This document shows positions 2,167 to 23,570 of a stretch of 64,000 nucleotides of DNA, piece by piece. The notes under the pieces are model-generated. The model was not told the DNA's origin and did not search any database. It was given only the letters and a program-made list of their open reading frames with translations. Positions within the stretch are counted from its first letter, which is position 1; every line of letters starts with the position of its first letter. The translations under genes and the position numbers were made by a program. Origin of the DNA: a virus; the IMG/VR virus record IMGVR_UViG_3300045988_019695, positions 39,492 through 103,491 of that record; one strand, written 5' to 3'.

Positions 2167-2862
2167 TTATTCTTGTGTATTTACTTCTTGAGTTATAGTC
2201 TAATAGCGCTCATCCTTCTTATTCTCGATGTACATCTGAGCAGCTATCTTTATAATCTCATTAAGTACTGTATCCTCGAACTCATCATATTCGTCATGAG
2301 GGTCGTCGAGAGATATTTCCTATGGCTTTCTTATATAACCAAGCTAATACTTATAGATTCTATAATTCTTATCTGTTAATAAATTGCAGCCATATTTTGT
2401 CCTAACTCTAAGAGGACGAGCTCTGTGATATCTGTAATGAAAGTCTGTAAGGCTATTGTTAACCCTATACATAAAACTATCTTGTGTACACTCAAAGACA
2501 CACGTGTTCAATTGATTCTTGTTGTTATTATCTGATATAACAACATCCTCGTTTGATGCGAATAGGAAATCTTCTGGATAGTGTATCTTATATACGTCAT
2601 ATGAAGGTTCCAATAGGTTTGTCTATATATCATCGTACCAGTAACTTTTGGTCTTGTACAGCTTAATTAAATCATGTCTACGCTTCTCTGTTTCCTCGTA
2701 CGATGTATCATGGACAAGATCACCATTAAATCTAGTCTTTACAAACTTATCAACAGCCTGGTTGAGCCAAAATAAAGATTCGTCCGTCGATGGTTTGTCG
2801 AGAGGACTATTAAACTTATTAATCTCTCTTTCGAAGTTCACCAATATGTCTATATATCTCAT
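2167..2862 (-). CDS. head-tail module protein (TAG read as sense)
   Basis: Track ORFs 2623-2862 and 2344-2613 share a frame and are separated only by TAG (2623). The frame continues through TAGs at 2344, 2320 and 2200 to TAA at 2167. ATG at 2862 is preceded by GGAGGGTGAGCA. Confidence 0.65.
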
Positions 2863-3605
2863 TGCTCACCCTCCTATTGTTTAGGCTGTTTCTTAGTATT
2901 ACCCTACGATAATTTAGCCTTATACTATGTAATGTACATATCTACAGCCCCAGAGACAAGCTCATCGAAGCACGAGTATGGGAGCTGGCAATAGCTATGA
3001 ACAGCGCCAGCAGAGTCGTCATTATCGTTGTACTTTAACACATTGAATGCATTAGGCTAACAACAATATGTAAGATCTACATAGTCTATAGTAGTGTAAG
3101 AATCTGTGATAACCCTTAAATAAGGACTATCGTAAGATGTACTCTCAAGTACTACCATAGGATTAGGGAGAATAGAATTCTGATTGTAAAAAGCATTGAT
3201 TACATTGTCTACATCATCCTACTTAATTAATGCGTTTGGGGTAACTACTGGTTTACTAAGAGCTTTAGGGCTCTTATAGTTCTTTGAAATGAAACTATCA
3301 GACCTAACATACATAGCATAATTGTCAGGTAAATCAAAATGGTCATTAGAGACAATGTCTGGTTTAATCTTTGCATGTCTTATCAAAGGTTTAATAGTAT
3401 CATGTATTCGTTTAGCTTTCCTAGTACCACGCTGCAGTTCATCTTCTACAGCATACAATGACCTAACATACTGTGACTAGAACTCGCTAAGGAATGAATA
3501 TATTGTATCTGTAGTAAGCTTTTCCGTAGTAGCAAACTGAGGATAAATCTCAAATAACCTACGTTCAAACTCTATACCTAGTTTTCTAGTTTCTTCTTTT
3601 GTCAT
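2859..3605 (-). CDS. head-tail module protein (TAG read as sense)
   Basis: ATG at 3605 overlaps the upstream TGA (ATGA). The frame contains track ORF 3219-3458 and six in-frame TAGs, and ends with TGA overlapping the next ATG (2861-2859). Confidence 0.6.
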
Positions 3606-4324
3606 GATTCAAGTGGTCTAGTATTTACTTTAGTAGTAAGCCTACTGGATTCTACAATCTCGGTAGACATTATAATAGCCAGATTAATAAGTTCCTCAGC
3701 CATAGAGTCTGACAGCTCAAACTTTGTAGATGTAAAGTCGTAGTCTGATTCAAAGTTACCTGGACCAACTGCGAACTTATTAGGATGTTTAAGATACAAG
3801 AATTGAGCAGTAGAAGTAGCTCCATTGTACTGTACAACCATTGGGTCTACATATGTTATAATGCTATTGTTTTCTATAACTGATGTAGGGTATTCAATCC
3901 ACGGCATATTATTAGTTGTAGCTTTATAGTTCTTAGCTTCTTCATGTGACACGAATCTCATTTCCTATATAGAGTGAGCCTTGCCATCAAATGAATTGAA
4001 GCTGTTATTAACAGTAAATTCTCCGTTCAAGATATACATATAGTCTAACTTGTCTGTAGGGAATCTATAGCTGTTATCTCCAACTAAATTACCGATTGTG
4101 TATACATTATTAATTAATGGCTTTAAATCTTCAATTGCTTTCATATCTGATTCAAACGCTGACCTTCTAGGATTGTTCCCTGTATATTTTTGAGCTATAA
4201 GAGCTAGGTAGGCTTTATCAAGTATTGTAGCAATCTCATATTTAGTTAGCGACGGATATGACGAAGTTATATTTGCCTTGTCATATTCAATCATAAACTT
4301 AGTATAAATATCACTATGCGTCAT
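3602..4324 (-). CDS. structural-module protein; two 119-aa ORFs in one frame joined by a single TAG
   Basis: ORFs 3965-4324 and 3602-3961 are in the same frame and separated only by TAG(3965)-GAA-ATG. They may be one fused product or two genes, depending on suppression. Confidence 0.5.
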
Positions 4325-4337
4325 ACGTCGTTCGTTA

Positions 4338-5090
4338 TTATTTATTTTCGACCTGATTAATAATCGAGATCTTTAAGTCTTGATTCTTCTTTGCGTCCAA
4401 GTATGCAATACAATCCTCAAGTGAGTCTGCAAGCATCTCAGAACCATAATAGTACTGTGTTCTATCCTTACGGATAATGCCCTTAGCAATAGCACTCTCG
4501 ATCAAGAACTCTGTTTCCTTTGTCTTATTATTAACCCACTTAGTAAAGAAGTTTTGTGGCTGCTTATCAACCAATGAGAACAATGTAGACTCTACAAGCT
4601 CATTAGACATTGTATCAGCGCTAACGCCGAACAATCTAAGACACTTGCGCATCTCTTCAAGAGAAAGCTTGCCAAAAGCAATGATAGCGTCTCTACGAAG
4701 CTTGTTGATCTTATTCTTCTCAATAGCCTCAGCCTGTCTATTAATAAGCAGATAGTCTTTACCAGCATTAAGCTTATCAAGTGATGTAGCTACTCTCTTA
4801 TGTCCCTCAAGGAACTTAATAATCATAGCCTAGCGTGGGAATGAGTCATCGAGGATTGTGCTCTTAGAGCCAACTTTAACACAGAATGTATTCCAGAATG
4901 GTGAATTCTTAGCGAGGTGGCCTTCTGGGTAGCCAAGCTCCTTTTCAAATTTCTTTTCGTCCTCAGGTGTTAAACCTGTGTATATCGACCCAGATCTGGT
5001 AAAGTAAGGTGCAATATAATCAAAGCAATGCTTGTACTTCAACAATCCAGCCCAGGGATTTTTCTTTCTGATCTTTAATTCAACTACCAT
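4338..5090 (-). CDS. structural-module protein; ORFs 4830-5090 and 4338-4826 in one frame joined by a single TAG
   Basis: Same frame; the junction reads ...DDSFPR-TAG(4830)-GCT-ATG-IIKFLEG; terminal stop is TAA at 4338. Confidence 0.5.
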
Positions 5091-5122
5091 AATTTTTCAA
5101 TTAGTTGTTGCAATGCCAAGCT

Positions 5123-5143
5123 CCCACCCGATTTTTGGGTGGG
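5123..5143 (-). terminator. hairpin downstream of the capsid gene (possible terminator)
   Basis: cccaccc (5123-5129) / gggtggg (5137-5143) with a 7-nt loop, 28 nt after the TAA at 5171. No clear U-run follows. Confidence 0.3.
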
Positions 5144-5170
5144 GTTGAACATTGTATATTATTTAATTAA

Positions 5171-6331
5171 TTAGAGCTCTGCTGCTCTGTTCTCAACTGA
5201 GATAGACTCCTGGTCTTCAGCATCACAGTACAAGATACCACATGACAATGGATTTCTCAACATGATACCCTCTTCACCGAGGAAGTGTACCTGGTAACCA
5301 TCACGGCTGTTAGAACGCATAGTGTTGATATTGTTTGCATAACCATTTGGCAATACAGAACCACCAGTACACCACTGTACGAACTCACGGCCCTTACGAC
5401 ATACCTTAACGATGTTAGCCTGACCATCACGACGACCAAGGTCAACGAACAAGAATGTGTAAGACATCAATGGCTTACCTGTCAATGGGTGAAGCTGACG
5501 GAACATCTCCATGTTATCGAACATAGCGCAACGCTTAACTGTCAACTCAATACCATTAGTCATAGTGTAAGTTGTGAACTGACCACCCAACTTCAAGTCC
5601 TGACCAGAACCTGTAATGAAGTGTGTATCAATCATATTGAAACTAGCTGCCTTCTCCTTCAAGATACGGTCGAATTCACGGATACCCATCTCACCAGTCA
5701 AAGCAACGAACTTACGCTCATTAGTACCAATAATGTTGTAGCAGAGATCGAACAAGTAATCCTCGAACAACTCTGTAGTCAGCTTTGTATAATAACGTAC
5801 ATTAGCTGGAGCAATCTGCTCAAACAAACCTGCAGAGATTGGAACGAAACGACCATTAGTACCCTTCAAATTGTAAGTACCATCTGCGTTACGGTTAGAG
5901 TGAGCGAACAGCAACTGCTTCTCCTCTCTCTTCTTCCACTCACGAAGAGCCTTCCAATACTGATAGTCAGACCACAAATAAGACTTCTTACCTGTCTCAG
6001 GATCAGTCAAAGCGATAGCCAATACTGTAGAATAAGCATCACCTGTGATATCGTAAGTAAGACGCATAGTCATCAAGCTATTACGCATCTTAAATGGAGT
6101 CTGATAGTTGATGATATCTGCCTCATCACTGTACTCCTCATATGCAGAACCGATACGGTCTACCTGACGGCCTGGGAGCAAATACTCGCAAGGAATATAA
6201 GAACCCTGGAAACCTTCTGCTACGTAGCACTCATATACCCATGTGCTACCATCCTGGTATGGAGTACCATTTACACGTACCTGGAAGTTTACATTGTCAA
6301 ATGCCAAAATAGCGCCTGGCTTTTTATTCAC
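5171..6331 (-). CDS. major capsid protein candidate, C-terminal exon
   Basis: 386-aa TAG-free ORF with a highly biased codon set. It has no ATG (the track start is GTG directly after an in-frame TAA at 6341). Combined with 7183-7584 it gives about 510 aa, an inferred size match to crAss-like HK97-fold capsid proteins. Confidence 0.55.
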   Translation of the reverse strand: MNKKPGAILAFDNVNFQVRVNGTPYQDGSTWVYECYVAEGFQGSYIPCEYLLPGRQVDRIGSAYEEYSDEADIINYQTPFKMRNSLMTMRLTYDITGDAYSTVLAIALTDPETGKKSYLWSDYQYWKALREWKKREEKQLLFAHSNRNADGTYNLKGTNGRFVPISAGLFEQIAPANVRYYTKLTTELFEDYLFDLCYNIIGTNERKFVALTGEMGIREFDRILKEKAASFNMIDTHFITGSGQDLKLGGQFTTYTMTNGIELTVKRCAMFDNMEMFRQLHPLTGKPLMSYTFLFVDLGRRDGQANIVKVCRKGREFVQWCTGGSVLPNGYANNINTMRSNSRDGYQVHFLGEEGIMLRNPLSCGILYCDAEDQESISVENRAAEL

Positions 6332-7182
6332 TCGGAGTCGTTAATTCCGAATCGCTAGCTATGGCATTCTCGCTAGCAGCTTCATCTTTCGATGAAGAAT
6401 TGACTATATCACAACCCTAAAGAAAGGGTTTCCAGTACTTCGGGTCACTTGACCCTACACCGTGGTTAGCGGTTAGTCGATGAACCTTCAAGTCTACTTT
6501 GTCAACACGAAGACCTTTAAGCAATCCAGCTTTAATATAGTCTCCTGTGTTCGCATGTTTTTGAATTAAACCATAAGTATAACCACTTATTCTAAATTGC
6601 TTTCTCAAAGCTTTAAACCCATATATGGTAAACTGCGCTCCATTGTAAACATTAGTAAATACATATGCAACCTGCGGACCATCTTTTGTATGTATTGGAT
6701 GGTTAAAGCAATGTCCTTTAAACAGTCCATGTTCCTTTCCGTGTTGTATATTATATTCTGGTGTGCACCATTCTAGATTAGATAGATAATTATTTAATTT
6801 ATTTCCATCTATATGGTTTACTTGTGGTAAATTGTTTGGATTATCTAGAAATGTCATAGCTACAAGTCTATTGACTCTATAGTCGTATCTTTTACCATCT
6901 TTAGTAAAAGTGACATGCAGATAACCTCTTTTATTTTTACTCGGCGATAAAAATTTATTACTTCTATGTGACCAAATATCACCATGTGTTGTACATGCGT
7001 AAAGACCTTCCCATCCCGGTATGTCTTTCATCTAGTAGCCTTGCTCGGCTGCTGATTGTCCATTTTTTATATTATTCATATATCTATAATTTTATTTATA
7101 ACTCTATGGTATAAAATTCTTTAGGAGTTTCCAGCAATTCTCTGGATTTTTCAATTTATATTACTATAAAAGGCGGCACAGG
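6332..7182 (-). mobile_element. group-I-like intron carrying an HNH homing endonuclease, splitting the capsid gene (boundaries approximate)
   Basis: An about 850-nt insert between the two capsid ORF halves. Flanks of the HNH ORF form GNRA-capped helices on the minus strand, e.g. cttcatc-GAAA-gatgaag (plus 6381-6398) and gctagc...gctagc (6354-6377). Confidence 0.5.
6417..7031 (-). CDS. HNH homing endonuclease (NUMOD4 + HNH_3 type)
   Basis: IPGWEGLYACTTHGDIWS (NUMOD4-like) and VNHIDGNKLNNYLSNLEWCTPEYNIQH (HNH). The ORF ends in TAG. Confidence 0.8.
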   Translation of the reverse strand: MKDIPGWEGLYACTTHGDIWSHRSNKFLSPSKNKRGYLHVTFTKDGKRYDYRVNRLVAMTFLDNPNNLPQVNHIDGNKLNNYLSNLEWCTPEYNIQHGKEHGLFKGHCFNHPIHTKDGPQVAYVFTNVYNGAQFTIYGFKALRKQFRISGYTYGLIQKHANTGDYIKAGLLKGLRVDKVDLKVHRLTANHGVGSSDPKYWKPFL

Positions 7183-7584
7183 TTATGCGCTATAGAACCT
7201 ACCGAACCACTTCTCTTCCAAGCCAAGATAAATAGGAGTGTTATTAATACCTGGAGTCAAACCATCTTTAATTGACTTAGGTGTAATTTCCTTACCATTC
7301 CACTTAGCGTAGCGGATATTAACAGCGTGATCAGCGTCAATCATTACAGACCACTCATACTCTCTATTTTCGATAGTCATGGTTGAACCAAGACCACCAG
7401 TTAGTAAGTCGATAGTAGTTGAAATACCATCATCCTTTGTACCAAAAACCAATGACAACAAGCCTGCTACCTCATGAGGCTTTGTAAGCATTGCGTTAGC
7501 AATCATGTTTTCGTCTACCAAGTCAGCAAAACGCTTACCACGATAGAGCTGAAGATTATTTAATAAAGAACTTGAATTATTCAT
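7183..7584 (-). CDS. major capsid protein candidate, N-terminal exon
   Basis: 133-aa TAG-free ORF directly upstream of the HNH insert. Its TAA at 7183 would lie inside the intron. It follows the scaffold-like gene. Confidence 0.5.
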   Translation of the reverse strand: MNNSSSLLNNLQLYRGKRFADLVDENMIANAMLTKPHEVAGLLSLVFGTKDDGISTTIDLLTGGLGSTMTIENREYEWSVMIDADHAVNIRYAKWNGKEITPKSIKDGLTPGINNTPIYLGLEEKWFGRFYSA

Positions 7585-7602
7585 AATATGTTAATTGTCT
7601 CA

Positions 7603-8799
7603 TCATAGGTATTTTGACGCGAGATCCCATGCCTGAGGTTGTTTTTCATGCCCAACATTGTATGATGTATGATTTTTTGTTTGGTGTTTGAGCATTTGTC
7701 TAAGTTTACTCGCAGCAGATGTCTGACCATTGCGCTGTGCTTCGCCCAGTAGAGCATCACCCTTCATTGTGAAGTAGGCTGATTCTATCAAATTGTTAAC
7801 AAGGTTATTATTAAAAGCCTTCTGATACTCTGTTAAACCGTCTACATCAGTTCTTGTAATATAATCGAACAACGCTTTTCTATCCTCCTTTGGGATATTG
7901 ATACCTCTAATATTAGTAAGACCGTTGATATTAGATGTAAGGTCATTCATGAACTGTGCAGCTTGCTGCTCCTGTTTCTGTCTTTGAGCTTCCTGTTGCT
8001 GAGCCATATACTCTTGCTGTTGCTGTTCGTACGCCTTAAGATAATTTACAGCATCAGCTGCTTCATCTTCCAGCATGTCAGCATCTTCATAGCGCTCAAT
8101 CTTGCGACTAATCTGTTCGTCATTCATTCCCTGTAATCTATAGAACTCACGAACAGCTGCTTTCTGATTAGATTCGTCCTCCAAATCTATGTTATCGTAA
8201 TACATAGATTTCTGTTGTGTCTGATAGAAGTCTTCAAATTTACCACCATTCTTTACGTACTGATCAAGTCTAGCAATACGATCATCAGCGTACTATGGTG
8301 TTGAATTCTCATCTACGACATCTTTGATATACTCCACGAGGTCCTCGACTGACTTAGGTTTCTCGTCTGCATCAACACTCCAACCATTAGCTTCAGCGAA
8401 TGCGTCAAAGAAAGCACCAATCTATTCTGCTTCTCCAGGATCTACGACGTCGGTGTCAGTCTGCTGATCATTATCATCATTGTCGCCATCCTATTCGTTG
8501 TCAACTGTAGTTGTGTCGGACGTATTATTATTTAAAATATTATCTGGGATCTGTGTATCATCATCATGAGCATTAGGATCACCAGTTACATTCTTATTAT
8601 CTTTATTATCCTCAGAAGACTTGTCGTCATCTGGATTGTCTAAATTATCAATATCATCATTAGGGTCATCTAACACCTGATTAACCACATCCTGGTTATC
8701 GATGTCTGTAACGCTGTCGCCACCTTCCTGGCCACCGAACCCTAGAGAGTTCAAAGCGTCTTCAAAATCACCTAATGGATTTTTCTTCTTTCTTGCCAT
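7603..8799 (-). CDS. acidic/Gln-rich protein, putative scaffolding protein (TAG read as sense)
   Basis: Track ORFs 8491-8799 and 7603-8205 share a frame. Codon-by-codon reading of 8206-8490 shows only TAGs at 8491, 8422 and 8293; the stop is TGA at 7603. Function comes from position upstream of the capsid gene and from composition. Confidence 0.6.
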
Positions 8800-8869
8800 A
8801 ATTTAAATTATAACTAAGTTAATATTTTTAATTGTCGTACGCTACACGGGATTCGAACCCGTATAATGT

Positions 8870-10480
8870 TCAATGTTTCCAACCTGCTGCATTATGTGCA
8901 AAGTTGGCTTTCTTTCTCATAGCTGCACTATACTTACTTGGATTACTTAAAACTCTATTAGCAAAACTTTGGATACTCATACCATGCTATTTAGCTGCTT
9001 TAGTAAATGTTCCACGCTTAGATTTCTTGATATGTATATCTTTACCAGAATTAAATTTTCTTTTATTTGTTGGTATTTTGTTTCGTTCTACGATACCAAC
9101 ACTTTCTCTAAATTGACTCTCTACTGGAGAAGCTGGATTATATACAACATTCTTATAATGCCCATCAAATAACTATCCTCTAGGCTATGCATTACTTAAT
9201 GCATCTAACAGATCTTCAGGAAGATTTTTTGAATTTAAAATATCAGTATCATGTACCTATGATGTATATTTCGGCCTAAGAACATAATCCATAAACTAAT
9301 AATCTTTTAGTCTTGGTCTATTAGCTTTTGCAGCCTCTTCTAGTAAAGCCTATTCAAACTCACTACCGTAATCTCTAGGTTTTTCTAAAAGAAAACGTCC
9401 AGATTTTCTTGAATCGGCATTTTTCTGCATTAATTCAAATGCTTTGCGAAGTTTCTGATTAGTGTTCTAATCAAATACCTAAATGTTCTTTGTTGGGACT
9501 TTTATGTTTTCTCCAAACGTAAAAGTGTCAGAAGGTCTAGTAGATATAACGTTTTTACCAAGTAAACTTTTACCAGGGAATCTAAGTATTGGTCTAGTAC
9601 TCCAATCTCCACCAGAATTTGGAAGAACTGGATAATCTGTAGTAAAGTTACTTATTAGCGGACTTACATCGCCAGAGTCATAAGCAAATCTACTATTTAT
9701 TGGAGATACTATAGTATATTTCTAGCTCATATCTGGTAAAATACTATACCTTCTATACAAGTCTGGAAACTATGCGTCGAACCCATATTTAATCTTTCCT
9801 CCAATATATCTAAGGTATTGAGCATTCGGATTGTCACTAAAGTATATTTGTTTTGCGACATTTTTTATTTCCGGTAAAGCCTTTCCTGCTACTGGAACCA
9901 TTCCGAGAACGCCATATGGATTACCATCTGATAACTCCTTTGCACCTTTTAATGCAAAATACATATCAGCAGCAGGCTATGTTATTGGATGTAAAGCAAG
10001 TGCAGTCATTCCACCATCTATAGCATCAGCTACTTCTCCTTGCCAAGTTTTCTAATACTGAGCATTCTATATATCTTTCTTCGTCTAAAGATCTGACATA
10101 TATTTATCAAATGCAGCATCACCCATATATTCTTTAAGATCCATAAGTTCTTTATTGCGTTCTGCAGCATCTACTTTGGAAATGTCTCGCTAATTAACAT
10201 TTACTTCCTGCAATCGTCTATTAACACGTTCTCCTGTTTTTAGTATATCTTGTCCTGTGTATGGATCGTGTCCAACAATGTCTCTAAGATAAACCATTCT
10301 AGCATCATCTCCAGTATCAAATTTAGGAATCTTAAGTTTCTTTCTAAGCTACTTCTCAGCTATCTACTAATCTGCTTCAGCCTATGCTTTTCTTCTACGT
10401 TTAATCTTACGAAAGAGCTTATGACGCTGATAGTCATTCTTCTTCTGCATCTTTCGCTTAGGACTTTCCATCTATGTCAT
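8870..10480 (-). CDS. 536-codon virion-module protein of unknown function (TAG read as sense)
   Basis: ATG at 10480 overlaps the upstream TGA. All frame triplets were checked: about 25 in-frame TAGs, no TAA/TGA until TGA at 8870. Includes track ORF 9770-9964. C-terminus reads ...GTFTKAAK-TAG-HGMSIQSFANRVLSNPSKYSAAMRKKANFAHNAAGWKH. Confidence 0.65.
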
Positions 10481-11505
10481 AATTGCATCAGTTTAAGATT
10501 ATTACCTCTTCTCTACCAGAACTTCTAGCCATAAGAATCTTTGCCAAAATTATTCTAAGGAAGTAGGTTAAGTATATTCGGAAGTGAAGGCTATGTTATT
10601 CTATCGTACATCTACTGTTTATACTAATCAAGATCGCGCTATTGCTAAGCTTTAATTTCTTCCTAAGTTGGACCAAGTAAAGCTGCTGGAACATCTGCTC
10701 TAATAGTACTAGGCTATCTTGTAGAAGGAGAGTTTATTATTATAGGACTAACATTCTTAGCGTCCTCATAGTCCTGTACGAGATCATTAAACTGTACATT
10801 ATAGTTATAGGCATCCTTATGTGCATTCCTATGATAATAAGCCGCCTTAACAAGGCTATCCATACCTCTAAGATTTCTAGAATAGTTCTCAAGAGAATCT
10901 TCATAATACCCTTTCTGCTTAAGCGCTCTTGCATAATCCTGTGTAGATTTAGCTCTAAGCGCTTCTCCATATCTAGTATGCATAAGTCTTACATAGTCCT
11001 TAACAAAATCTGCATCACTCTTGTATGTAGTATAGGTCTTACCATTCCAGCCTACGCCACCATAGTTGTGCTATTGCCTAGCAACTCTAGATCTACCGTA
11101 GTTAGATTCATATGCAAGCTGACGCATTACATTATAGTATGCAGCATCACCGTATCCGTATCTGCTTAGCTATTGTCCTACAAGAGGGCCCATTCTGTGA
11201 ACAAAAGTATTAATAGAATCATTCTTTCCTCCTTTGTATTTATGCAGTATTGGATGTTCTTCGTTTAATGGAGTATCAAAAGGTAATGGCTTAATAATGT
11301 CTTCAGCTATATTAACATCTTTACCTTCATTGTAAGCATTAAGTATAGACTATACATTCTAATCAATCTACTACTACTCTTCTGGACTAGGTTCATCAGC
11401 CTGGGTGTCTCCACCCAAGTTGATTCCTCTAATGTCTTTCCAGTAATCAGCGCCATTCTTCCACGCCTCATACTTCTACTAAAATGTCTTATTATCTAAC
11501 TTCAT
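10477..11505 (-). CDS. glucosaminidase-domain peptidoglycan hydrolase (virion lysin/endolysin candidate; TAG read as sense)
   Basis: Frame checked end to end: 19 in-frame TAGs, TGA at 10477. Core QLAYESNYGRSRVARQ-TAG-HNYGGVGWNGKTYTTYKSDADFVKDYVRLMHTRYGEALRA...ALKQKGYYEDSLENY resembles the FlgJ/LytD glucosaminidase motif pattern. Confidence 0.6.
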
Positions 11506-11900
11506 GCTATAGCCTCCTCATACTCTTCTTTAGAAATCTAAATAAATGTACAGTTAAGTTTTCCGCAGTATCCCTACTTTTGTTTAAAGCAATACTATAT
11601 AGCTCCTTTATCAATTCCTAACTATCTAGAAGCTTCTCTCAAAGACGGATAATACTTTACATCGTTAGAAAAAATAACTTTTAACCAATATCCTTTTGGT
11701 CGATTGCTATAATCTGAATATCGTTTTCTTACTGCAGAATGTTCACCATATTTATTCCATGCACTCTACAAGTGAGCGTTTACATGTTTGTTTGCCCTAA
11801 GGTTTCTAAGATGTTCTTTAAAACGTTGCTCTATATGAATAGAGCTACCAATATACCGTTTACCATTTACGGTATTATAAATCTAATAAACTCCACTCAT
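11502..11900 (-). CDS. GIY-YIG homing endonuclease (TAG read as sense)
   Basis: MSGVY-TAG-IYNTVNGKRYIGSSIHIEQRFKEHLRNLRANKHVNAHL-TAG-SAWNKYG..., plus a C-terminal NUMOD1-like SLREASR-TAG-LGIDKGAI. Seven in-frame TAGs; TGA at 11502 overlaps the next ATG. Confidence 0.8.
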
Positions 11901-11902
11901 AA

Positions 11903-14386
11903 TTATTTACTTCTAGCAGCTTCTGCATTCGTTTTATTGCGTATGGCCGTGCGAGCCTTAAGTTTCTCGCGTTCATAAGCAGCATCGTCTTTAGCCTTCT
12001 ACAGCTCTGTCTCATGCTTCATCTTATCCTTCTCAAGCTAAATCTTCTGATCTTCTATCTCACGCTTCTGCTTAGCTTCGTAACGCTTATTATAAGCCTC
12101 TTGATTAATCTTCTGCTGTTCAAGAGCCTGTTTGCCAAGTTCAGCGACATCAGGTATTCCGTTATCGTTTTGATCCATATCTTCTGTTCCACGATAAGCA
12201 TTAATCTGCGCTACAGCTATCTTAGTCTGATTATCTTGATCAATCTGATATCTCTGAAGATCCATCTGAGCTTCCTATAGCATAAGTTCTTGCTGCTTAG
12301 CTTCATTCTGCATCTGCTGTAACTGCTGTTGCTGTTGTGCTTCTGTCTCTTGCTGCTGTTGCTACATCTGCTCCTGTCTAGTCTACATATCCTTAAGTTT
12401 CTGCTTAATGATATTGAAGTTGTCGTTTGTAAGAATCTCTGCGGCTTCAAGTAAGCTAGCACCATTCTGCATAGCTGGCTGTATAAGCTGCTGAAGTTTC
12501 TGTATGTTCTCAAGGTCTTTAGATGTATCACTTACGAACACATCCATGTCCTCATAGTAAAACTTAGGAGTAATGTCCAAGAATGCTCTTTCTCCATTAT
12601 CAAAGATATACTGGAGCTTCTGTTTACCAGTCTCTTCCCAAGCACCCTTAGCTGTATTAAGGAGCATATTAAGTACTCTTCGCTTGCACTGGTTATGAAC
12701 CCAGAACAATGGTTCAGTAATATGTGAGCTCTGTACTACAGATCTTTCTACATTACCTACCATCTCAGATGAGCTTACTGCTCCTTCACGCTGCTATGTA
12801 ATACCAGATATTGTTCCAGCCAGTTCTTCTATCTTATCCATAAGCTGTATATATTCAGCTATTACGTTAGACATTGTAAGATCCAATGCTGTTATCTGAT
12901 TAAACTGAGCAGGCTTGCCACCCTCTCTTCCTGGAATATTCCATCCTTCTTCATATGGGTTAATAAAGTTAACACCAACACTAGACAGATAGTGCATCCA
13001 TTTAGCTGGGCTAATATTCATAGACTTAGGAATCTATGTAATATCCATGTTTACAACCTTACCTTTATCTCTAGCGATAGCCAATTCAAGTCTGTACCAT
13101 AATACAATATACATATACTGCAATGGTTTAAGAATGCTAACCAATGATCTAGGCTTACTATTTGTATTGCTATAAATAGCACCACAATAAGGAAGTTTCT
13201 GGCTATTAGGATTATCGATGCTTACATGCTGATATTCAATAGGCTGTATACCAAAGTATAAGTCACTACCAGCCCTGTATCCTTCCCATACCTCTACAAT
13301 CCAATCTGGTTCTACGCTAATCTCGTTACCAACAGGTTGATATGTCTCATCAACTATATTGATCTGAGGCTGTCCTGCATCATCTGTAGTAGTTACATAG
13401 AATATCTTTTTGAAAGACTTCCAGCAACAATGCCATACATTTACAAGAGACTTACCAGCTCCCTCGAATATAGGATTATCGTATATACGTAACTGTATAC
13501 CCATATCAACAGGACTTCTATCTCCAAGGTTTCTACCAGGAGTAGAGCCAATCATTTCTTCAAGCTTGTCAAGGTCTTTTTCTTCAAGCTTATCATAATA
13601 TCTATCGTATACTTCTGTAATAGGCATACGCATCTTTCTACAGCACCATGATCCATCTTCGATGAATTCTAAGTCTGGACTCTTATCGTAAGAGAAGTAT
13701 ATAGGATTAACTCTTTCGACATACGGTTCTGCATTAAGTACGCCAACATAATAAATTTCTCTACCTGAGATCAATCCATCCTTCCATCCTTTGATAAACT
13801 CGTTATCAAGATCAAGTCTTTCTCTTAGATAGGTAAGCGTATGATACGCCGTATTTTCTACAATATCTTTGTAATCCTTATCCATGTATTTAGCTATCTA
13901 TTCTGGAGGCATAACTTCACCAGACTTTAGCTATTCCTGAAACTACTGAGCTTCTTCTGGACTCATTCTAGCTGTGATAGATGCTTCTATATATTGTAGT
14001 ATCATCTACTTCTCTTTCTCCTGCATTTCTGATGTTGCCTCCTATGAAGTTCTGATAACTCTGAAGTTAAGAGGTCTTTTTGTCTCCTCGCCTATAAGCA
14101 AGTCTACTTTAGGTCTTATGATATTAAAGTCATGAGGAGTAGCAGGAAAACCATCCTCGACCTTGAATGGGTTTGTAATTGATTTAAAATCCTTCTCGTC
14201 GAAGATGCTGTTGTATAAATTATAATAGGTCTACAGCTCTCCGTAATATGATGTACTATTTCCTCCAGATGTTACGTTACCTTCACCTATAATATAGTTA
14301 ACGCAATCTTCCTGCCACTTCTTTCCTTTCTTTGAAAGAGGGAGCTTTTGTCTGGGGAAAGCTGAATTGTATAAGTTATCTTCCAT
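11903..14386 (-). CDS. portal protein (TAG read as sense)
   Basis: Track ORFs 13034-13885, 12794-13021, 12383-12763 and 12038-12265 are all in one frame. Manual reading joins them through TAGs only, from ATG 14386 (MEDNLYNSAFPRQK...) to TAA 11903. Size (827 codons), position after TerL and motifs such as NPFKVEDGFPATPHDFNIIRPKVDLLIGEE support the call. Confidence 0.75.
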
Positions 14387-14389
14387 GTA

Positions 14390-16453
14390 TTAAAATGTGA
14401 ATATCGGCATACCGTCTTCACTTGTGCTGCTATCTTCTTCAAACCATTGTTTGCTAAATAACGGCATCTCGAAGAGTTCAACCTATTTGTTTTGTTCTTT
14501 TGCAGACGACACCTTTACCTAATAGAGCTCCTCTCTGTATATCATTACCATACACAAAGCTATTACACGGTCTACATTTCGTACACCATCATTCTCTATA
14601 AGCTCTTCTATTAGAGGTTCGCTGTATACTCTTTCTACATTAGGGTGACCTTCTTCAAACTCATCTAACAGCCACTCTAATATTAATCCTTCGCCATACG
14701 CCCTAATCTATTTGGTCATGTGGCATCCTTTTCTTCTTTGTACTTTACTGTCTTTAAAGACTTCAGATATGATTTTATCCGGCTAATCAGCCAAGAGGTA
14801 ATCGCAGTGTTTATTCGTAAAGTAAGGGTAGATTCCTTTTCTTTCATTCTCAAATAATAATCTAGCATTGTAGAATGTAAGTAGCTTACGCACATTCTCA
14901 TAGTATTCTTCTGCCGTATCTGGTCTTCCAGAATACTCTGCTACTATCACATCTGTCCATGCTTCTCCAGCTCTTACTCTCTTAAATATAAATGTAGAAC
15001 CAAGAGAGTTTGTAAAGCTATCGTCGTGATCATATGGGTCGCATCCTCCTATGTATAAACCAAGTGGAGGATCCTTTACTGGGTATTCCCATATAACTAC
15101 AGAGCCATGAGGCTTATCTCCCTTCTTAAGAGGGTAGTTGGTTATATCCCCACTAGGCTTTTCTGTAGCCTTTACTTGGCCATTTCCATCCCATTCTAGA
15201 TCAACTATATGCTTCATGCTTTGAAGCTTCTTGTTGGTCCTTATTCTTGTTAACTGATCCATCAATAACTTTCTAGGGAATATATTCTTACCTAGCTCCA
15301 ATACAGCCTCTGCTGGTCTTATAGGACGCTCTGATATAAAACGGTCTATTGATTGCTAACTAGCACCTCCGTCCTTTACTTTATTTCTCTGATCTATAAG
15401 ATTCTGTATAGCTTTCTCTTTATAGCTATTTCCATCCTTATCCATGTAAACCTAATTGCCATCATCGTCGAATGACTCTAGGTTTGAATATGCTGGAACA
15501 AAGAATGCGCATTCAGTGTTCTCTCTACCTTCGTCCCATATATTAGGAAAGCTGAGAACATTGTAAGACTTAGGCTTGTAGAATAACTCTTTCAATCCTT
15601 CAAAGCTAGCACCTTCTGTACCACCGGTACCAAATGCTATCATCAATCCGAACGCTTTACCATCATCGGTTTCTACTGAAGGCTGCTCTATACGCCATGC
15701 ATCAAGAAGGCTAGGGAACTTACCTCCCTCCTCCCATAGTACAAGCTTAGCACGAGTACCACGCACACGCTCTGGGTCATTCTTAAGTGTTATACCTGTT
15801 ATACTGGACAGATATCCTTGCTCTGTCTACTTACCAAACTCATCTGTAATCTTATAACCTGATGTTCTCTCCATACGTGTAGACACAAGTCTTTGCTTAG
15901 CCCACGCTGTATGTTTATCAAGGAAGTCCATTATCTGCCAGGCTTTAGTTAACAAACCATCACCTATAAGGAATTTCTACTCTGACGCTATAGCAAAGTT
16001 CTTTGAGCCAGGTATAAGCATATAGTTTCTAACCAACATAGATCCTCCCTTAAATGAGTATCCTCTCTGTCTGCATTTAAGTACAGCCATATGTTTACCT
16101 TCAAGCTCTGCTTGTTCTATAGCGCAAAAATAATAGTAATCATAGTCCCAAAAACTAGGGAACTCAAGTATACGTTGTCTTCTCTTTCTTAGGTTACCCT
16201 CTCTATCTGTATACTCTTCTTCCTTAAGTCGCATGATTGGACTATAATTTAGATAGAAGTAGTTGTATCCGGTTATACCTTCGCCATCTGGAGCTGTATA
16301 ACCATTAAGGCATCTATCTGTTTCTTGCTCCCAATATTTGTTATAATCAGTAGTACCTCTAGGAGCTAAGGTATAGCATCCATGTTGCTGAAAGAATATA
16401 GCTGCCTATCTGAACTTATCAGTATCATGGAGCTTCTAATTAAAGTCTATCAT
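14390..16453 (-). CDS. terL: terminase large subunit (TAG read as sense)
   Basis: Track ORFs 15977-16234, 15452-15766 and 14783-15301 share one frame, and the gaps contain only TAG. Runs from ATG 16453 (MIDFN-TAG-KLHDTDKF...) to TAA 14390. Motifs: ITGYNYFYLNYSPI, VLKCRQRGYSFKG, GGCDPYDHDD. Confidence 0.8.
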
Positions 16454-16455
16454 AA

Positions 16456-16965
16456 TTATTCGTACATACCAATAACGCCACCACCCTTGACTCTACCGGT
16501 TTCTGCTTGTTCTGCCTTTGCCTACTTCATAGCCATGTCTAATGATTTGATAATACCGCTAACATCTTTCAATATTGCTGAAAGCTTCTTAGCTGTATCT
16601 ATATCAAGCTCTTCTTCAGCATAGCTATCCATCGTGTTCATAATGCCCTCTGCTGCGCTCTTAGAAGATTTAAGCAAGCGGGTAGCAGGAGTCTCTTGGA
16701 ACTCCTGGAACCTTTTTGCTAATTCTTTTATAACGTCATCAGGTTTATAATTCTCATCATTAAGTACATCTTTAGCCACTCTCCATGTGCGTTCTTTCTC
16801 TGGATATGCCTCATATGGGCTATTCCATTTATATCTCCACACTATGAATTCGATCTTCTTTAATGCGTCTTGTTTATCTTTAGCATTGTTATAGAAGTCT
16901 TTAAATGGTGGTATAGCTAAATCTTCTGTACTTAACTGTATTTTATTTTGTATGATGTCAAACAT
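16456..16965 (-). CDS. small protein upstream of terL (small terminase candidate by position)
   Basis: Track ORF 16522-16965 ends in TAG. The same frame continues 21 codons (AKAEQAETGRVKGGGVIGMYE) to TAA at 16456, 2 nt before the terL ATG. Confidence 0.4.
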
Positions 16966-16996
16966 TACTTAAATAATCTTTTAAGCCAGTTTATCT

Positions 16997-19900
16997 TTAT
17001 GGTAGAAAGTGTTCAGTAAGATTTTTATTTCTAATTTCGTATACGGCGTCAGAACTTCCTGTTCCATGATTAATAAACCAACCAGATAACGTAGATGACA
17101 AATTAGGGCTTTCTGTATCAGATGCAGACATTACATATATACCATTATTTGTATTATTATTAAATGTTACACTATCCTACTCAATGCGTGTATATGGAAT
17201 AGATCCTGATGATGAACCAGAAGTGCCTGCAATATAATAAGTAAATGATCCAGTAGGCTTGTCAACTTTTGAAATCTTAGCCCAAGACTTATTAGTTGTA
17301 ATAACATTCAATGTTCCACCAATTTCGCCAGATGGAGATTGAGATGGAATAGTCTAAACGTATACCGAGCCGGTAATAGCTACAGTTCCTTGCATATTCT
17401 TAGTACCATTTGTAAATGATGCTTTATTATAAACCTCTACACCAAATAAATATCCATATGTAAGGAATGTGTATATTCCAACCTAATACAATATTGTGCT
17501 ATTATCTACCTTCTTATAATATGTTCCACTAACAGGAGTCTTCATTGTAGCATCCGTATAGTACTTGTTATCTTTTATGGTAAATGTTCCTACCTGACTA
17601 AAGCTTAAGTTTGTATCAGATCCTCTCTTCTGATACCATGTTTCAGTACTATCTGCTGCATTACTATTAATCCAATCTGGTTTACCATTTGTTATTCCAA
17701 GATGCCATGTTGTACCATTTATTACAAAATATATAGTTCCGTTATCAAGTACTATTTTATTAGTAGTACCACTTGTAAGAACACCAGTATTAGTAACTGT
17801 AAATGGAGCTGTATCAAGGCTATTGCCATCTAATGGGCCTGCCCAAATTCTTACATCTCCCTTGTTTATATTAGGATCTAATTTTGAGCTAGTAACATTT
17901 CTGCTAGATGTCATACCAGCAACAATATCTTCACCATCAAATACCACTACTTCATTTGTAGATAATTCTTTAATAAAGCCTTGGTTTGCAATAATTCTCT
18001 ATGCTACAATATCTGGAGACAACGAGAATGCTGACCAATAAGAAGCAACGTCTGGATAGGTAGACCAATTGTTGTTTTCTCCAGCTTCTGTATTCACACA
18101 AGCGTAATATACATTATTATATAATACGACGTCCTGATAGAATACACCATCTTCGTCTGACGCTCTCTTGCCATCAAGGTATTTGGTGTTTATTACATGC
18201 GAACCTCTCATTCTCAAAGGACTTCCATTCATAGTCTAACCTGTAGAAGCATTGCCATCTTTACCAGCAGCTGAAATAGGAATAGTAATAGAGTCTATAA
18301 ATGCTCCGTTGCTATTATTTATGATTATCTAAATAGTGGCAGAGCTACTTGAAACTTCTCCGGATATAGAGCAATTCCATTGGTTATTACCTTTTGTTGG
18401 AGCAGTAACTGTAATACTAGGATTTGTACTTACGTTGCAGTTATAACCAGAAGTTTCCTATAAAGCATAATCAGCATTACCTTCTTTCTTATAGAGCTTA
18501 ACAGTAAATGTAGAAGAGATATTATATTTATTACTCTCATTGGCCTTATAATTAAGCGACATATCAGATACCTCTATCTTATATGTAACACCATTAATAC
18601 CATCTACTGCTGGAGCCTTTATAATAGGAACATATTCTTTGAAATCAAGATTACCATTTTGAGCTCTAAAGTACATTCCATTTTCTCCCTATGTCTATAT
18701 CTCTTTCTGTGATATAGGGTGCCAACTTGTACCTCCATCTTCAGAATACGAGAATGTCCAGTCTGATGTTTCGTTAGGGTAGATCTATGTTACCTTATTG
18801 CCATCACTCTTTGTAATGAAACAACTAATCGTACTAGGGTATAAAGAACCATCCTGATAGTTGATGGCGGAAGCATTAGTGTCAAGTCTGTACGAAACAG
18901 CATCTGTACCAGAACCATTTACAATCCCATAGAACTGAATATCAACGTATCTAATATTAGACTGTATTGCTGTATCTGTTGGCGTAAGCTTAACTCTAAG
19001 AGTCCAATACTTACCATCAGACATATTCAGACTACCTTCTGGAATAGTCATTGAAATTGTGTTATTATCATAGCTAAACCAAGTATTCCAGCCTGATATA
19101 GTTGAATTATCTGAACACTTAAAACTTTCAAACTTATGGTTAAAGCTAATCTCTGTACCACTATTATATAAATGCAATCCAGCTGTACCTGAGTATTCTT
19201 TGTTTGTACCATCGTCTAGCAAATATAAATATTTAGTCTCTCCGATTACGTCAGCAGTAATAGCATTTGACACACCATCTTTAGCATGATAAGCCCATAA
19301 TGTTGGGTTGCTATACTAGTGCCAATAAGCATCTTCTGTCTCAGAGCTACTTGGATTATCATCATTTCTCTTCTTTCTTACAGACACCCATGCTGTGCCA
19401 CCTTGAGGAACTTCCTATGGATCGTCAGTCCATGTACCTTTAGATTCTTCTTTTATATACTCGTCTTTATTGAATGACTCGTGATTTGTATCAGCTTTTG
19501 ATGCTGCATTGTCATACCAATCATGTGGATTGTCTGTAGGAGCTTGCTTTGTTTGAGATATAGCAAAGATATACTCTACGCCATCTCCGTCTGTACCATT
19601 GTCTCCATAATGAGACCAAAGAATAGGTTCTGACCAGATGCTCCATGTTTCTACATCTTTAACTCTTATTGAAACCCATTCGTTTACAAATTTCGAAGTT
19701 ACACCCTGTGGGTTATCTGTCCATCCAGAAGGATTATCACCCTATGGTCTTTCGAAAGTCTGCCCTTTTACACCCTATCTATAAATGAATTCTCTATTTG
19801 ACTAATCTGTTCCAGCACTAGTACCATCTTCTCCGGTAATACAAATAGGTGTAATATACTATCCATAATTACCATCAGAATCGATGAATACCTATGTCAT

Positions 19901-20794
19901 CCATACATGCTGATTAGGGGCTCTATTTATGCTATGCTCAGTCCATCCTGAACCGCCTCCAGGAGCTGCGCCTGCATTTGGAGTCTAGACGCTAGTAGTG
20001 TTCTTATCTACACATTTGAAGTAAACTTTATATCTACCACCATCTTTACCAGTACCAGAACCAGAAGAACCGCCATCAATTTTAATGACGCCATTTCCAT
20101 TTGGATCATACAGTGTATATTGATTACCATCAATCTGGAGTTTCTTAAGCTTGTTTATCTCAGCGTATTTAGTAAGCTCATTAGCAAGCTATTCTTTAGT
20201 GACAAGTTTGCTTGTATCAATGCCACCTGAAACGATAGATACTGTGAATTCTCCACCGTTCTTCTGCTTAAGAACAAGCTGACCATTAGCAGAATTATAG
20301 TTAAATGATTCAATGCTGTAGTCTTTACCGCCTGTTACCTTAATATTGTTTATCTCTGTTGTAAGATTATTGATCTTGTTCTGTATGTCATTCTTAATAG
20401 TATCAAGATCAGCCTTAAGAGCATACTTACTAAGATCTGCCGTATCATTCTTAATCTTAGCTACAAGCTCATTTACATATTCTATAGTAGCATATTTAGC
20501 TAATACATTGTCACCAAAGCCCAAATCGTAAAGAATGAGCTTAACCTTCTTATCAAGGTCTTCTTCAAGCTCGTCGAGCCTCTCTTCATGTTTATCTACC
20601 ATTGTCTTAATGAGATCAACAACATCCTGGTTAGCTTTATTATCCCACTTATCTTTATCTTCTTTAGATACTGGTTCGCTGTCAGCGTTCTTATTCATCA
20701 CCTTTGAAAGGAGAGACGAATACTACTGAGCAGCTTCTAAGTGACCATTATGATGACATGCACATTCATGGTCGCAATAATCAAAATCTACCAT
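16997..20794 (-). CDS. tail fibre / tail spike protein, 1,265 codons (TAG read as sense)
   Basis: Track ORFs 20189-20701, 18785-19273, 18458-18676, 17999-18232 and 17483-17947 are all in one frame. Every intervening triplet was checked: only TAG, about 40 in-frame in total across the gene. ATG 20794 (MVDFDYCDHECACHHNGH...), TAA at 16997. N-terminal coiled coil, Gly/Ser/Thr/Asn-rich beta-like remainder. Confidence 0.7.
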
Positions 20795-21038
20795 ATTAAT
20801 TTGTTTAAATTGTTAACAATTATAGTACTGTGGTGTCATTGAAGACCACGTCTAAAACGCCACAGTTATAGGTTAAATGAAATCGTTCTAATCTAGCGTA
20901 TTACTACGCAAGCCCTAGTATATTCCACCTAGGGGTGATAAAAGTCCTACCCTGGTACGCATTTGAAAAGAGGCGTGGTAGAATCTATTGTGCTAGGCGG
21001 GGCAGCGAACCCCGTCATGCTTTCATTAAGACCTAGCC
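20795..21038 (-). other. structured intergenic leader between the two fibre genes
   Basis: Minus-strand helices: cgggg/ccccg (20998-21014), ctacc...acgc/gcgt-ggtag (20947-20981), gcgta-GTAA-tacgc (20896-20909), actgtgg/ccacagt (20827-20866). Confidence 0.4.
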
Positions 21039-22334
21039 TTATGCAGCATCTTCTTGATGTTTAGCTTCAAGTGCTGCAATACGAGCTTCAAGTGCTGCAA
21101 TCTTTTCATAATATACAGACTTTGTAATAAACTCGCTATCATTAGTAAGCTGACTAACCTTTGTAGGAACAGTAGGAAGTTCAACCTTCTTAGCATACTC
21201 TTCAAGAGACTGATGTTCTGTAAGGTAATTACCTTTAGGCTGTTTTGTATCAATAGCAGAATTCAGTATACCAACCTGTTCATTAAGAGCTGTTGTAAGA
21301 ACATAATTACTAAGTGCTGTAGTATCAGCTTTAGCATTTATAAGGTTCTGGAGATACGATTCCTGACCATTAGCACGCTCAACTTCTGTTCTAATAGCTT
21401 CATTGATAGCTGTTTCTGCAGTTGTAGCTCTAGATGCTTCATTCTGAATAGCGAGAGCATTATCACCTTCAACTTCCTTAGCTCTAGCAGCCTCTGCTGC
21501 AATCTCAGCCTTATTCTATGCTTCTGCTGCCTTAGCTCTTGTAATCTCTTCATTAAGGGCAACTGTAGTAGCCTTAGTAGCAATAGCATCATTAATAGCT
21601 GTATGCAGATCATCATTACTATTAAGCTTATCTGCAATCTCCTTCAATGTATCATAAGCCTCTGGAGCTGCGCCAACTACATCAGCTATAGCTTTTCTGA
21701 ATGAACCTTCAGTTGTAGAGTCACCATTAATAATATCCACCTCTGCTTTGATCTCATTCTCCTTAGCAGTAGCACGTGTTACCTCAGCATTGAGGTTATC
21801 CTTAATTGTATTGTCGTCATTCTCACGCTTTGTAGCCTCAGCCTGTATGTCTGAAGAAAGAGCATTCTCACTAGCCTTAGCACGATTAACTTCAGCTGTA
21901 AGATCATTGCGAAGCTGAGTATCAGCGTTTACTCTTTCCTGCTTCTCTGTATCAATGTTCTACTGAAGTACATTATCTCTTTCATTTGACTCTATCTCCT
22001 TCTGATCAATCTTATCATCAAGAGTATTATCTCCCTAGATTCTATTAGCAGTCTCTTCCTCTGCCTTTTCTTGGAATACATCAAATCTATGATTTGTAGT
22101 ATCTCTAAAATTATGGATTTCATTTACAATCTCTTCAAGGGAATCATGATTATTATCAACATTGCCCTTAAGTTCATCAAACGCCTGGATTACTGCATTA
22201 GCATCCATGATATCACCACGTACGTACTCACCTGCATGCTCACCCATCAAGAGGTTAACTGTTCTTGTACCAACATCCTTGGCGCCATGTACCTATACAC
22301 CTACCAAAGGTGTCTTAATAAATTTCTTCTTCAT
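21039..22334 (-). CDS. coiled-coil fibre/collar protein (TAG read as sense)
   Basis: ATG 22334, TAA 21039. Includes track ORFs 22035-22250 and 21516-21740 in one frame with about 4 TAGs. Repetitive N-x-A-x-x-E-x-x-RA heptad-like sequence. The overlapping Leu-rich ORFs in other frames are shadows. Confidence 0.6.
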
Positions 22335-22399: not shown

Positions 22400-22419
22400 T
22401 TTACGTAAGTGAATTAGGC

Positions 22420-22971
22420 CTATCCTTCACTTACCTCAGCACCTTCTTGTGCCGCCGCTGGCTCTGGTACGGACTCAACCTGTTCCTTAAGCTGTGACTG
22501 AGTTCCCGTAGCTGCGCTAGATTCATTCTCATTATCTGTGCCAGTAGAACCAAATCCACCCTCACCTCTCTCTGTAGGTGTAAGCTCTGAAACTTCTGTA
22601 ATTTCGTACTCTGGTACAGGAACTATGACTAACTGACAGAATCTCTCTCCCTTCTGATATACTGCAGGGATTGCATCTGTTGTTGCCTTCATGACAGCCA
22701 GGATCTCACCTCTGTAGTCACTGTCTATCACTCCGACATTATCTGTAAGCCATAATGATTTCTTCCAAATACTAGAGCGTGGTATAAGTAAACCAACATA
22801 TCCGGCAGGAATCTCAACTGCCAATCCTGTATGGTAAACCAACATTAGCTGATTTGCTTCATTAATAACTGTATCTATCTTAATGCAAGTCAAATCAATT
22901 CCTGCAGCACCTTTTGTGCCACGAATAGGAAGGATTGCTTTATCCTCAAGTCTCTTAAATTTTAACTCCAT
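22420..22971 (-). CDS. dut: dUTP diphosphatase with acidic C-terminal extension
   Basis: Trimeric dUTPase motifs AAGIDL, GLLIPRSS, GVIDSDYRGE, ERGEGGFGSTG. Confidence 0.85.
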   Translation of the reverse strand: MELKFKRLEDKAILPIRGTKGAAGIDLTCIKIDTVINEANQLMLVYHTGLAVEIPAGYVGLLIPRSSIWKKSLWLTDNVGVIDSDYRGEILAVMKATTDAIPAVYQKGERFCQLVIVPVPEYEITEVSELTPTERGEGGFGSTGTDNENESSAATGTQSQLKEQVESVPEPAAAQEGAEVSEG

Positions 22972-23040
22972 AGTATTTATAATATGTTTATTATTGTTAC
23001 CCCACTAGGATTCGAACCCAGACTAAACATAATCTTTTAA

Positions 23041-23469: not shown

Positions 23470-23491
23470 CTCTAACCTACGTATTTATTAG

Positions 23492-23564: not shown

Positions 23565-23570
23565 ATATAT

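Follow-up and report, generated by a model that had tools for sequence, protein, structure and literature searches.

In the Delta group of crAss-like phages, late genes are known to use TAG as a glutamine codon (genetic code 15) (Yutin et al. 2021, PMC7886860), and proteomics has detected peptides spanning TAG sites read as glutamine in two crAss-like phages (Peters et al. 2022, PMC9523058). A model in which such recoding regulates lytic genes has been put forward (Borges et al., bioRxiv 10.1101/2021.08.26.457843). For some recoded genomes no suppressor tRNA could be detected, and an extremely divergent suppressor has been proposed; group I introns in the capsid gene are typical of the group (Yutin et al. 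2021, PMC7886860). Here, we examined 64,000 nucleotides (the window) of IMG/VR virus record IMGVR_UViG_3300045988_019695, a genome of approximately 103 kb. We consider it highly probable that the minus-strand genes for virion, packaging and giant proteins in this window are written in code 15, with TAG for glutamine and TAA and TGA as stops, and are decoded with a tRNA of the phage itself that has a CUA anticodon and lies at positions 23490-23562.

On sequence similarity, the window is classified as part of a gut crAss-like phage of approximately 100 kb that belongs to the Crassvirales, family Suoliviridae (the Delta group), subfamily Oafivirinae, in the genus Burzaovirus or close to it. It encodes a crass-type capsid protein (Pfam Crass_capsid), a portal protein and a large terminase subunit (TerL), and has close nucleotide identity to classified members. 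The portal and terL genes are 93% identical at the nucleotide level to those of cr124_1 (NC_055899.1, Burzaovirus faecalis) and cr7_1 (NC_055895.1). These two phages have the same gene order as the window and also have a transfer-messenger RNA (tmRNA), and in their annotations the portal, terL and other late genes run full-length through the TAGs. The window is set apart from cr124_1 by a capsid gene with an HNH-containing insert, a portal gene followed by a GIY-YIG gene, a 1.46-kb extension of a small open reading frame (ORF) and different fibre genes. Its tRNA locus has also been replaced and now contains a tRNA-Met, an odd tRNA, a non-canonical tRNA(CUA), an HNH gene and a 3' remnant of the cr124 type. 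In cr124_1, a canonical tRNA(CUA), annotated as tRNA-Gln, is found just upstream of the dUTPase gene, unlike the tRNA(CUA) of the window. The published amber-recoded Delta group and the window agree in late-gene TAG codons, their equivalence to glutamine, TAA and TGA stops, TAG-free early genes, a phage suppressor tRNA and, probably, a group I intron in the capsid gene, and nothing essential differs. Thus, TAG-to-glutamine recoding in this window is correct but already known, and near-identical RefSeq genomes carry code-15 translations. Where published accounts describe some recoded genomes with an undetectable suppressor, such a suppressor was identified in this window with support from covariation.

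Under the standard code (code 11), the minus strand from 967 to 23484 appears as fragments. When TAA and TGA are the only stops, long ORFs tile both this region and the minus strand between 56747 and the last position of the window. We measured coverage by same-strand ORFs that start with ATG and are at least 100 amino acids long. Re-calling the late region with TAG as a sense codon raised coverage from 0.35 to 0.96, whereas a control reassignment with TGA as sense gave just 0.39. Coverage of 56747-63747 rose from 0.11 to 1.00, and that of the plus-strand block barely moved (0.71 to 0.75). The shredding of the late genes under the standard code, reported in a preliminary description made from the sequence, is thus reproduced. 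The 15 minus-strand genes in 2167-22334 comprise 6,266 codons with 108 in-frame TAGs and no internal TAA or TGA. Read in its other two frames, this DNA has 77 TAA or TGA per 1000 triplets, a density that would give approximately 480 by chance. The terminal stops of these genes are all TAA (8) or TGA (6), and neighbouring genes overlap by four bases at 2859-2862, 3602-3605, 10477-10480 and 11502-11505, as expected from the claim that the merged genes end at TAA or TGA and are often coupled. The genes of the recoded blocks are as follows.

2167-2862, minus strand: late gene with four in-frame TAGs that ends at TAA; ortholog of cr124_1 gp23.
2859-3605, minus strand: late gene with six TAGs that ends at TGA and overlaps the next gene by 4 nt; TAG exchanges with CAA or CAG relative to cr124_1 gp24.
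3602-4324, minus strand: late gene with one TAG, from frame reading.
4338-5090, minus strand: late gene with one TAG; 98% amino acid identity to cr124_1 gp26.
5171-6319, minus strand: exon 2 of the major capsid protein (MCP), no TAG; matches Pfam Crass_capsid profile positions 199-495 (E 2e-131) and corresponds to nt 385-1530 of the cr124_1 MCP gene.
6320-7200, minus strand: 881-nt insert in the capsid gene with an HNH/NUMOD4 ORF at 6417-7031; absent from cr124_1.
7201-7584, minus strand: exon 1 of the MCP, no TAG; the spliced translation is collinear with the cr124_1 MCP.
7603-8799, minus strand: late gene with three TAGs (8491-8493, 8422-8424 and 8293-8295); 96.7% amino acid identity to cr124_1 gp28.
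8870-10480, minus strand: ORF of 536 aa with 20 TAGs, from frame reading; partial matches to cr124_1 and to cr10_1 gp63.
10477-11505, minus strand: gene of 342 aa with 19 TAGs and a glucosaminidase domain, from profile searches.
11502-11900, minus strand: GIY-YIG homing endonuclease with six TAGs; absent from cr124_1.
11903-14386, minus strand: portal protein with 13 TAGs, from PHROG 6547 and codon-level alignment.
14390-16453, minus strand: terminase large subunit with 10 TAGs, from PHROG 6681 and codon-level alignment.
16456-16965, minus strand: small late gene adjoining terL with one TAG, from frame reading and comparison.
16997-20794, minus strand: ORF of 1,265 aa with 20 TAGs and no TAA or TGA, called a fibre in the preliminary description, a function that was not confirmed.
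21039-22334, minus strand: coiled-coil, tail-fibre-like gene of 431 aa with four TAGs.
22414-22971, minus strand: dUTPase with a single TAG; this is the penultimate codon, so that stop and glutamine are both possible readings.
24650-25308, minus strand: two small genes upstream of the tRNAs, with four TAGs (24650-24880) and one TAG (24880-25308).
26404-26874, plus strand: the sole plus-strand gene with internal TAGs (six); homolog of cr124_1 gp45.
56747-62227, minus strand: ORF of 1,826 aa with 52 TAGs in a second recoded block.
62233-64000, minus strand: ORF with 18 TAGs and a DUF1848 domain that runs off the window.

The preliminary description had given the three TAG positions in 7603-8799 exactly and the 19 TAGs of 10477-11505 correctly, but had overestimated those in 16997-20794 (about 40) and 8870-10480 (about 25), each of which has 20. 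Its statement that TAG is the only interruption in the merged genes fails for the capsid gene, which is split by the 881-nt insert. The recoding that it placed in 2167-22334 is confirmed there and extends to 24650-25308 and 56747-64000.

Use of TAG is uneven among the recoded genes. As a share of TAG, CAA and CAG together, TAG makes up 8-20% in 7603-8799 and the portal gene and 53-63% in 8870-11505 (62% in 8870-10480) and in both giant ORFs at 56747-64000 (54% for that region). The minus-strand capsid gene (5171-7584) has TAG at none of 16 glutamine positions (P approximately 0.002 at the block average) and the minus-strand gene at 967-2091 at none of 14, compared with 8-63% in neighbouring late genes. 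Because these two genes are free of TAG, the data suggest that the suppressor-dependent codon is avoided in the virion proteins made in the greatest amounts.

Homology continues across the TAG positions. With TAG written as X, the portal protein matched PHROG 6547 without a break over residues 6-799 (E 2e-158), spanning its 13 TAGs, and TerL matched PHROG 6681 over residues 25-659 (E 1.5e-144), spanning 10. Both proteins align over their full length with eight relatives. The RefSeq record of cr124_1 has the same genes annotated as full-length, and its portal coding sequence contains 15 TAGs. PHROG searches gave no match for 2167-2862, 2859-3605, 8870-10480, 16997-20794, 56747-62227 and others.

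We compared ten orthologous gene pairs between the window and cr124_1 and found 26 TAGs common to both and 31 sites with TAG in one genome and a sense codon in the other. The sense codon was CAG or CAA at 21 of the 31 sites, including 13 of the 14 sites in genes with more than 96% amino acid identity. We also aligned the portal and terL genes at the codon level with up to seven more distant Suoliviridae, among them cr10_1 and cr1_1, in which TAG terminates the portal gene, and Azobacteroides phage, whose portal gene has no TAG. In columns where the window or cr124_1 has TAG, glutamine was the commonest residue (63 of 152 cells), followed by glutamate (25) and lysine (21), and several columns were invariant for glutamine. 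Other TAGs fall within poly-glutamine runs in the tail of the portal protein. For the ORF at 8870-10480, homology to GenBank phages is sparse. Over its first 50 codons it matches a small, unannotated 57-codon ORF in cr124_1, with TAGs at the same sites and exchanges of the type MTxME/MTQME; approximately 1.46 kb of extra sequence follows these codons. Its C-terminal 55 amino acids are 69% identical to cr10_1 gp63 across one TAG. In other crAss-like phages these 55 amino acids correspond to a separate small gene annotated as a transcriptional regulator. The predominance of CAG and CAA among the exchanges, the glutamine-rich TAG columns and the poly-glutamine context make TAG as glutamine in the late and virion genes a well supported assignment from sequence comparison, and it agrees with the TAG-spanning peptides found in other crAss-like phages (PMC9523058). 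The 108 TAGs, the lack of TAA and TGA and this equivalence in relatives bear out the claim that TAG is a sense codon throughout the late block.

The plus strand is organized differently. From 26012 to 56730 it is tiled by 38 ORFs that encode, among others, a DnaB-like helicase, a primase-like protein and an AAA ATPase. These contain 7,285 codons, 221 of them for glutamine, and no internal TAG, where approximately 125 TAGs would be expected at the rate of the late genes. The exception, already noted in the preliminary description, is the gene at 26404-26874, which opens this early block with six TAGs, the first at codon 3, and has no PHROG hit. Thus, the early genes are compatible with both codes. 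In approximately five plus-strand ORFs a TAG near the 3' end is a candidate true stop. The clearest is the TAG at 36739-36741, which is followed directly by a GTAGGG...CCCTAC hairpin, with the next ATG at 36771; conservation is undecisive for this TAG because cr124_1 has the same sequence. That TAG acts as a terminator in the early block is plausible but not proven from such features.

It is therefore worth considering whether a single code 15 operates throughout the genome at all times and the early genes merely lack TAG, for instance through codon bias, with no temporal switch. All 38 tiled plus-strand genes end at TAA or TGA and none requires a TAG stop, the RefSeq entry for cr124_1 is annotated with read-through everywhere (including the overlap of gp63 and gp64), and 26404-26874 has its six TAGs. 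Against this, ordinary codon bias falls far short of accounting for a lack of TAG at all 221 early glutamine positions when late genes have it at 33-54%. The hairpin and well-spaced start that follow the TAG at 36739, the apparent natural ends of two HNH ORFs at TAG and the use of TAG as a stop in non-recoding relatives also speak for termination, and we regard a single unswitched code as unlikely. Because the early block fits both codes, sequence alone does not distinguish two regimes from a single code-15 genome in which the early genes keep clear of TAG. The two coding regimes proposed in the preliminary description therefore stand as TAG-rich late genes next to a TAG-free replication block, but not as something distinct from a single code.

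We then considered how TAG would be decoded. ARAGORN and Rfam found no tRNA with the anticodon CUA in the window. The 73-nt element on the minus strand at 23490-23562 nevertheless folds into a complete cloverleaf with perfect anticodon and T stems and the anticodon loop CUCUAAA. GG is missing from its D loop, ACCGCCUGU, and the T loop reads AUGGACA rather than UUCRANY; the element thus departs from the canonical G18G19 and T54-Psi55-C56 loops, and it had no match to Rfam RF00005 at E<=1, below what a canonical tRNA would score. Pattern scans found the identical 73-nt sequence in at least 13 other contigs of approximately 100 kb, plus four close variants. There are two sister forms, one that ARAGORN recognizes (D loop ...GG..., T loop UUCGACC) and a third type with a D loop of ...GA... 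and a T loop of GUUGGCA. In an alignment of seven distinct suppressor-tRNA sequences, 98.1% of cells were paired, and sliding the partners as a control collapsed the pairing. Compensatory double changes were found at 2:71 (G:C/C:G), 4:69 (C:G/U:A), 7:66 (A:U/G:C) and 27:43 (A:U/U:A). The tertiary elbow pair 19:56 also covaries, being G:C, A:U or C:G across the three forms and C:G in the form of the window. With five pairs changed on both sides, the cloverleaf helices and the elbow pair are maintained by compensatory change as in canonical tRNAs. In four genomes (L051, L068, L072 and L073) the same tRNA is the immediate upstream neighbour of the dUTPase gene, at the site of the canonical tRNA(CUA) in cr124_1, with no HNH gene and no canonical tRNA(CUA) beside it. 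From this covariation we concluded that the element is probably a functional amber suppressor of the phage, and the codon data point to glutamine as the amino acid it would accept. It is an example of the extremely divergent suppressor escaping detection that Yutin et al. postulated.

The element could instead be a decaying tRNA pseudogene, with a suppressor coming from the host or from another phage tRNA encoded beyond the window. The failure of ARAGORN and Rfam to recognize it, its aberrant T loop, the restriction of the analysis to 64 kb of the genome and the recoded genomes without a detectable suppressor noted by Yutin et al. (PMC7886860) would fit such decay. Decay is difficult to reconcile with an identical sequence in at least 13 other contigs and four close variants, with acceptor-stem changes that are compensatory and not random, with an elbow pair that takes three complementary forms in sister lineages, or with the occupation of the cr124_1 tRNA(CUA) site by this element in four genomes that have no canonical copy beside it, and we consider a pseudogene quite improbable. 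A reading of TAG as pyrrolysine (the ARAGORN label for a tRNA with this anticodon is Pyl), or as glutamate, lysine or tyrosine, is very improbable even though glutamate and lysine come next at TAG columns and the likeness of the suppressor to tRNA-Gln is not decisive, as the exchanges are dominated by CAG and CAA (including CAA, two steps away) with the one-step codons AAG, GAG, TAT and TAC rare, some TAG columns are invariant glutamine, TAGs fall in the portal poly-glutamine runs, the cr124_1 annotation has no pyl genes and proteomics found glutamine in related phages (PMC9523058).

Several points weigh against decoding of late-gene TAGs as glutamine by this tRNA. The evidence for this genome is at the level of sequence and covers the 64-kb window. 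The suppressor lacks a canonical T loop and a match to RF00005, covariation being the sole ground for its function, and its similarity to phage tRNA-Gln(UUG) is weak, with tRNA-Gln(UUG) ranking first for one locus but not for a second. The gene with six TAGs at the start of the early block fits poorly with a simple division into early and late genes, and two HNH ORFs within the minus-strand block, at 6417-7031 and 23046-23448, appear to end at TAG.

If TAG is decoded by the element at 23490-23562 as proposed, host ribosomes would read the early genes under either code, and these genes would be translatable before the suppressor accumulates because they have no internal TAG. The suppressor, which is co-directional with the late gene block and lies just upstream of it, would presumably be charged with glutamine by a host enzyme and compete with host release factor 1 (RF1) at UAG, leading to full-length late proteins from TAG-containing genes. 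TAG-rich genes would give full-length products only once the suppressor is present, tying their translation to the late phase, and TAA and TGA would remain the only reliable stops. Glutamine charging, the timing of tRNA expression and a regulatory purpose are the steps that we infer (Borges et al., bioRxiv; PMC9523058), and the scheme as a whole is the published one, which has the best support. Neither a release factor nor an aminoacyl-tRNA synthetase was detected in the ten large plus-strand ORFs that were searched with Pfam.

The suppressor lies in a locus that reads, along the minus strand, tRNA-Met, a tRNA with an 8-nt anticodon loop, the 73-nt element, an HNH ORF, a tRNA remnant and the dUTPase gene. 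Its elements, with one further tRNA upstream, are listed here.

22990-23026, minus strand: remnant consisting of the 3' half of a suppressor tRNA gene of the cr124_1 type.
23046-23448, minus strand: free-standing HNH endonuclease ORF that ends at TAG.
23490-23562, minus strand: amber-suppressor tRNA with anticodon CUA and non-canonical D and T loops, from the cloverleaf fold and covariation.
23571-23643, minus strand: tRNA with an 8-nt anticodon loop (Rfam 36.4 bits).
23654-23725, minus strand: tRNA-Met.
23865-23938, minus strand: tRNA (Rfam 37.6 bits) that ARAGORN misses.

The arrangement at 22990-23562, with tRNA(CUA), HNH gene and cr124-type 3' remnant, recurs in five other genomes (L060, L063, L065, L067 and L074). 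An HNH homolog comes after the sister tRNA of the third type in all loci with enough downstream sequence. From these arrangements, the locus looks like a homing-endonuclease-mediated replacement of one suppressor tRNA allele by another. We tentatively propose, as a possibility that falls somewhat short of even, that variant suppressors with a swapped elbow pair (G19:C56 to C19:G56, or A19:U56 in a sister lineage) and without the T-Psi-C sequence travel with an HNH endonuclease that cut and replaced the canonical gene of a cr124-like genome, leaving its 3' half. On the same proposal, standard tools would report no suppressor because the elbow pair is inverted and the T-Psi-C consensus is lost. 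If this is true, conflict involving homing endonucleases would drive the diversification of a code-changing tRNA.

Free-standing homing endonucleases also occur in phage tRNA clusters, an example being SegB of phage T4. The likeness to that setting is that the HNH gene of the window adjoins a tRNA gene and that the recipient tRNA gene was apparently cut inside and replaced, with a 3' remnant left behind. The two settings differ in the endonuclease family (HNH in the window, GIY-YIG for SegB) and in that the tRNA in the window is a code-changing suppressor. In the literature that we searched, there was no report of a non-canonical suppressor with a covarying 19:56 pair or of an association between an HNH gene and a tRNA remnant.

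Two other interpretations of the locus were rejected. A spliced tRNA, in which a 5' part at 23562 and the remnant at 23026 are joined across an HNH-containing intron, does not fit because the local cloverleaf is already complete, the joined anticodon stem is mismatched, no Intron_gpI signal is found in 22900-23600, and other genomes have the same tRNA beside the dUTPase gene without an HNH gene. A fusion of HNH and dUTPase through three TAGs (22414-23448) was dismissed because the linker is the tRNA remnant and the dUTPase starts at an ATG of its own, as it does in cr124_1. The tRNA at 23571-23643 has the 8-nt anticodon loop UUUGAAGA, for which ARAGORN calls a four-base anticodon, tgaa, and none of the related loci retrieved contained this tRNA. 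The tRNA at 23865-23938 is conserved in cr124_1, where it is unannotated.

The insert in the capsid gene (6320-7200) lies in phase 0 at a codon boundary relative to cr124_1, exactly after codon 128. Its HNH ORF (Pfam NUMOD4 and HNH_3) has TAG on both sides. Rfam Intron_gpI matched 6380-6588 with 29.3 bits, which is below the gathering score of 50, and E 2.8e-5 in a local search. The insert is probably a group I intron, predicted from these features, that carries an HNH/NUMOD4 endonuclease ORF. An intein was rejected because the three segments occupy three different frames. The GIY-YIG gene at 11502-11900, located between the portal gene and the next gene, needs TAG read-through, unlike both HNH ORFs.

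The window contains several other elements. A permuted tmRNA (Rfam RF04321, 56.5 bits), annotated in cr124_1, is found in the early block at 35483-35715 on the plus strand, and ARAGORN gives its tag peptide as DNVNNIVDYTNVA. It might have a link to the rescue of ribosomes during read-through of host TAG stops. Between genes of the plus-strand block, at 29482-29561 on the plus strand, lies a RAGATH-1 hammerhead ribozyme, which Rfam RF03152 matches with 71.8 bits, more than the gathering score. Approximately 2.1 kb at 39813-41917 has all three types of stop in all six frames and no Rfam match, and its counterpart in cr124_1 (28218-30381) likewise has no annotation; a large non-coding region or an RNA is possible. 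Upstream of the primase-like gene, 52000-52625 on the plus strand is non-coding and has tRNA-like T-arm fragments. There are two annotated tRNAs at its counterpart in cr124_1, and ARAGORN finds none there in the window.

For annotation, these results mean that the minus-strand blocks need code 15, without which approximately 60% of the late region would be missed or read in the wrong frame. In biological terms, the phage is another member of a well-documented class and changes no concept. The non-canonical suppressor tRNA is a modest addition, at the level of a hypothesis, beyond the known recoding. The added value is an example of a divergent suppressor, with natural covariation at 19:56 and a link to homing endonucleases. 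Such a divergent suppressor could explain some of the recoded phage genomes that have been reported to lack one.

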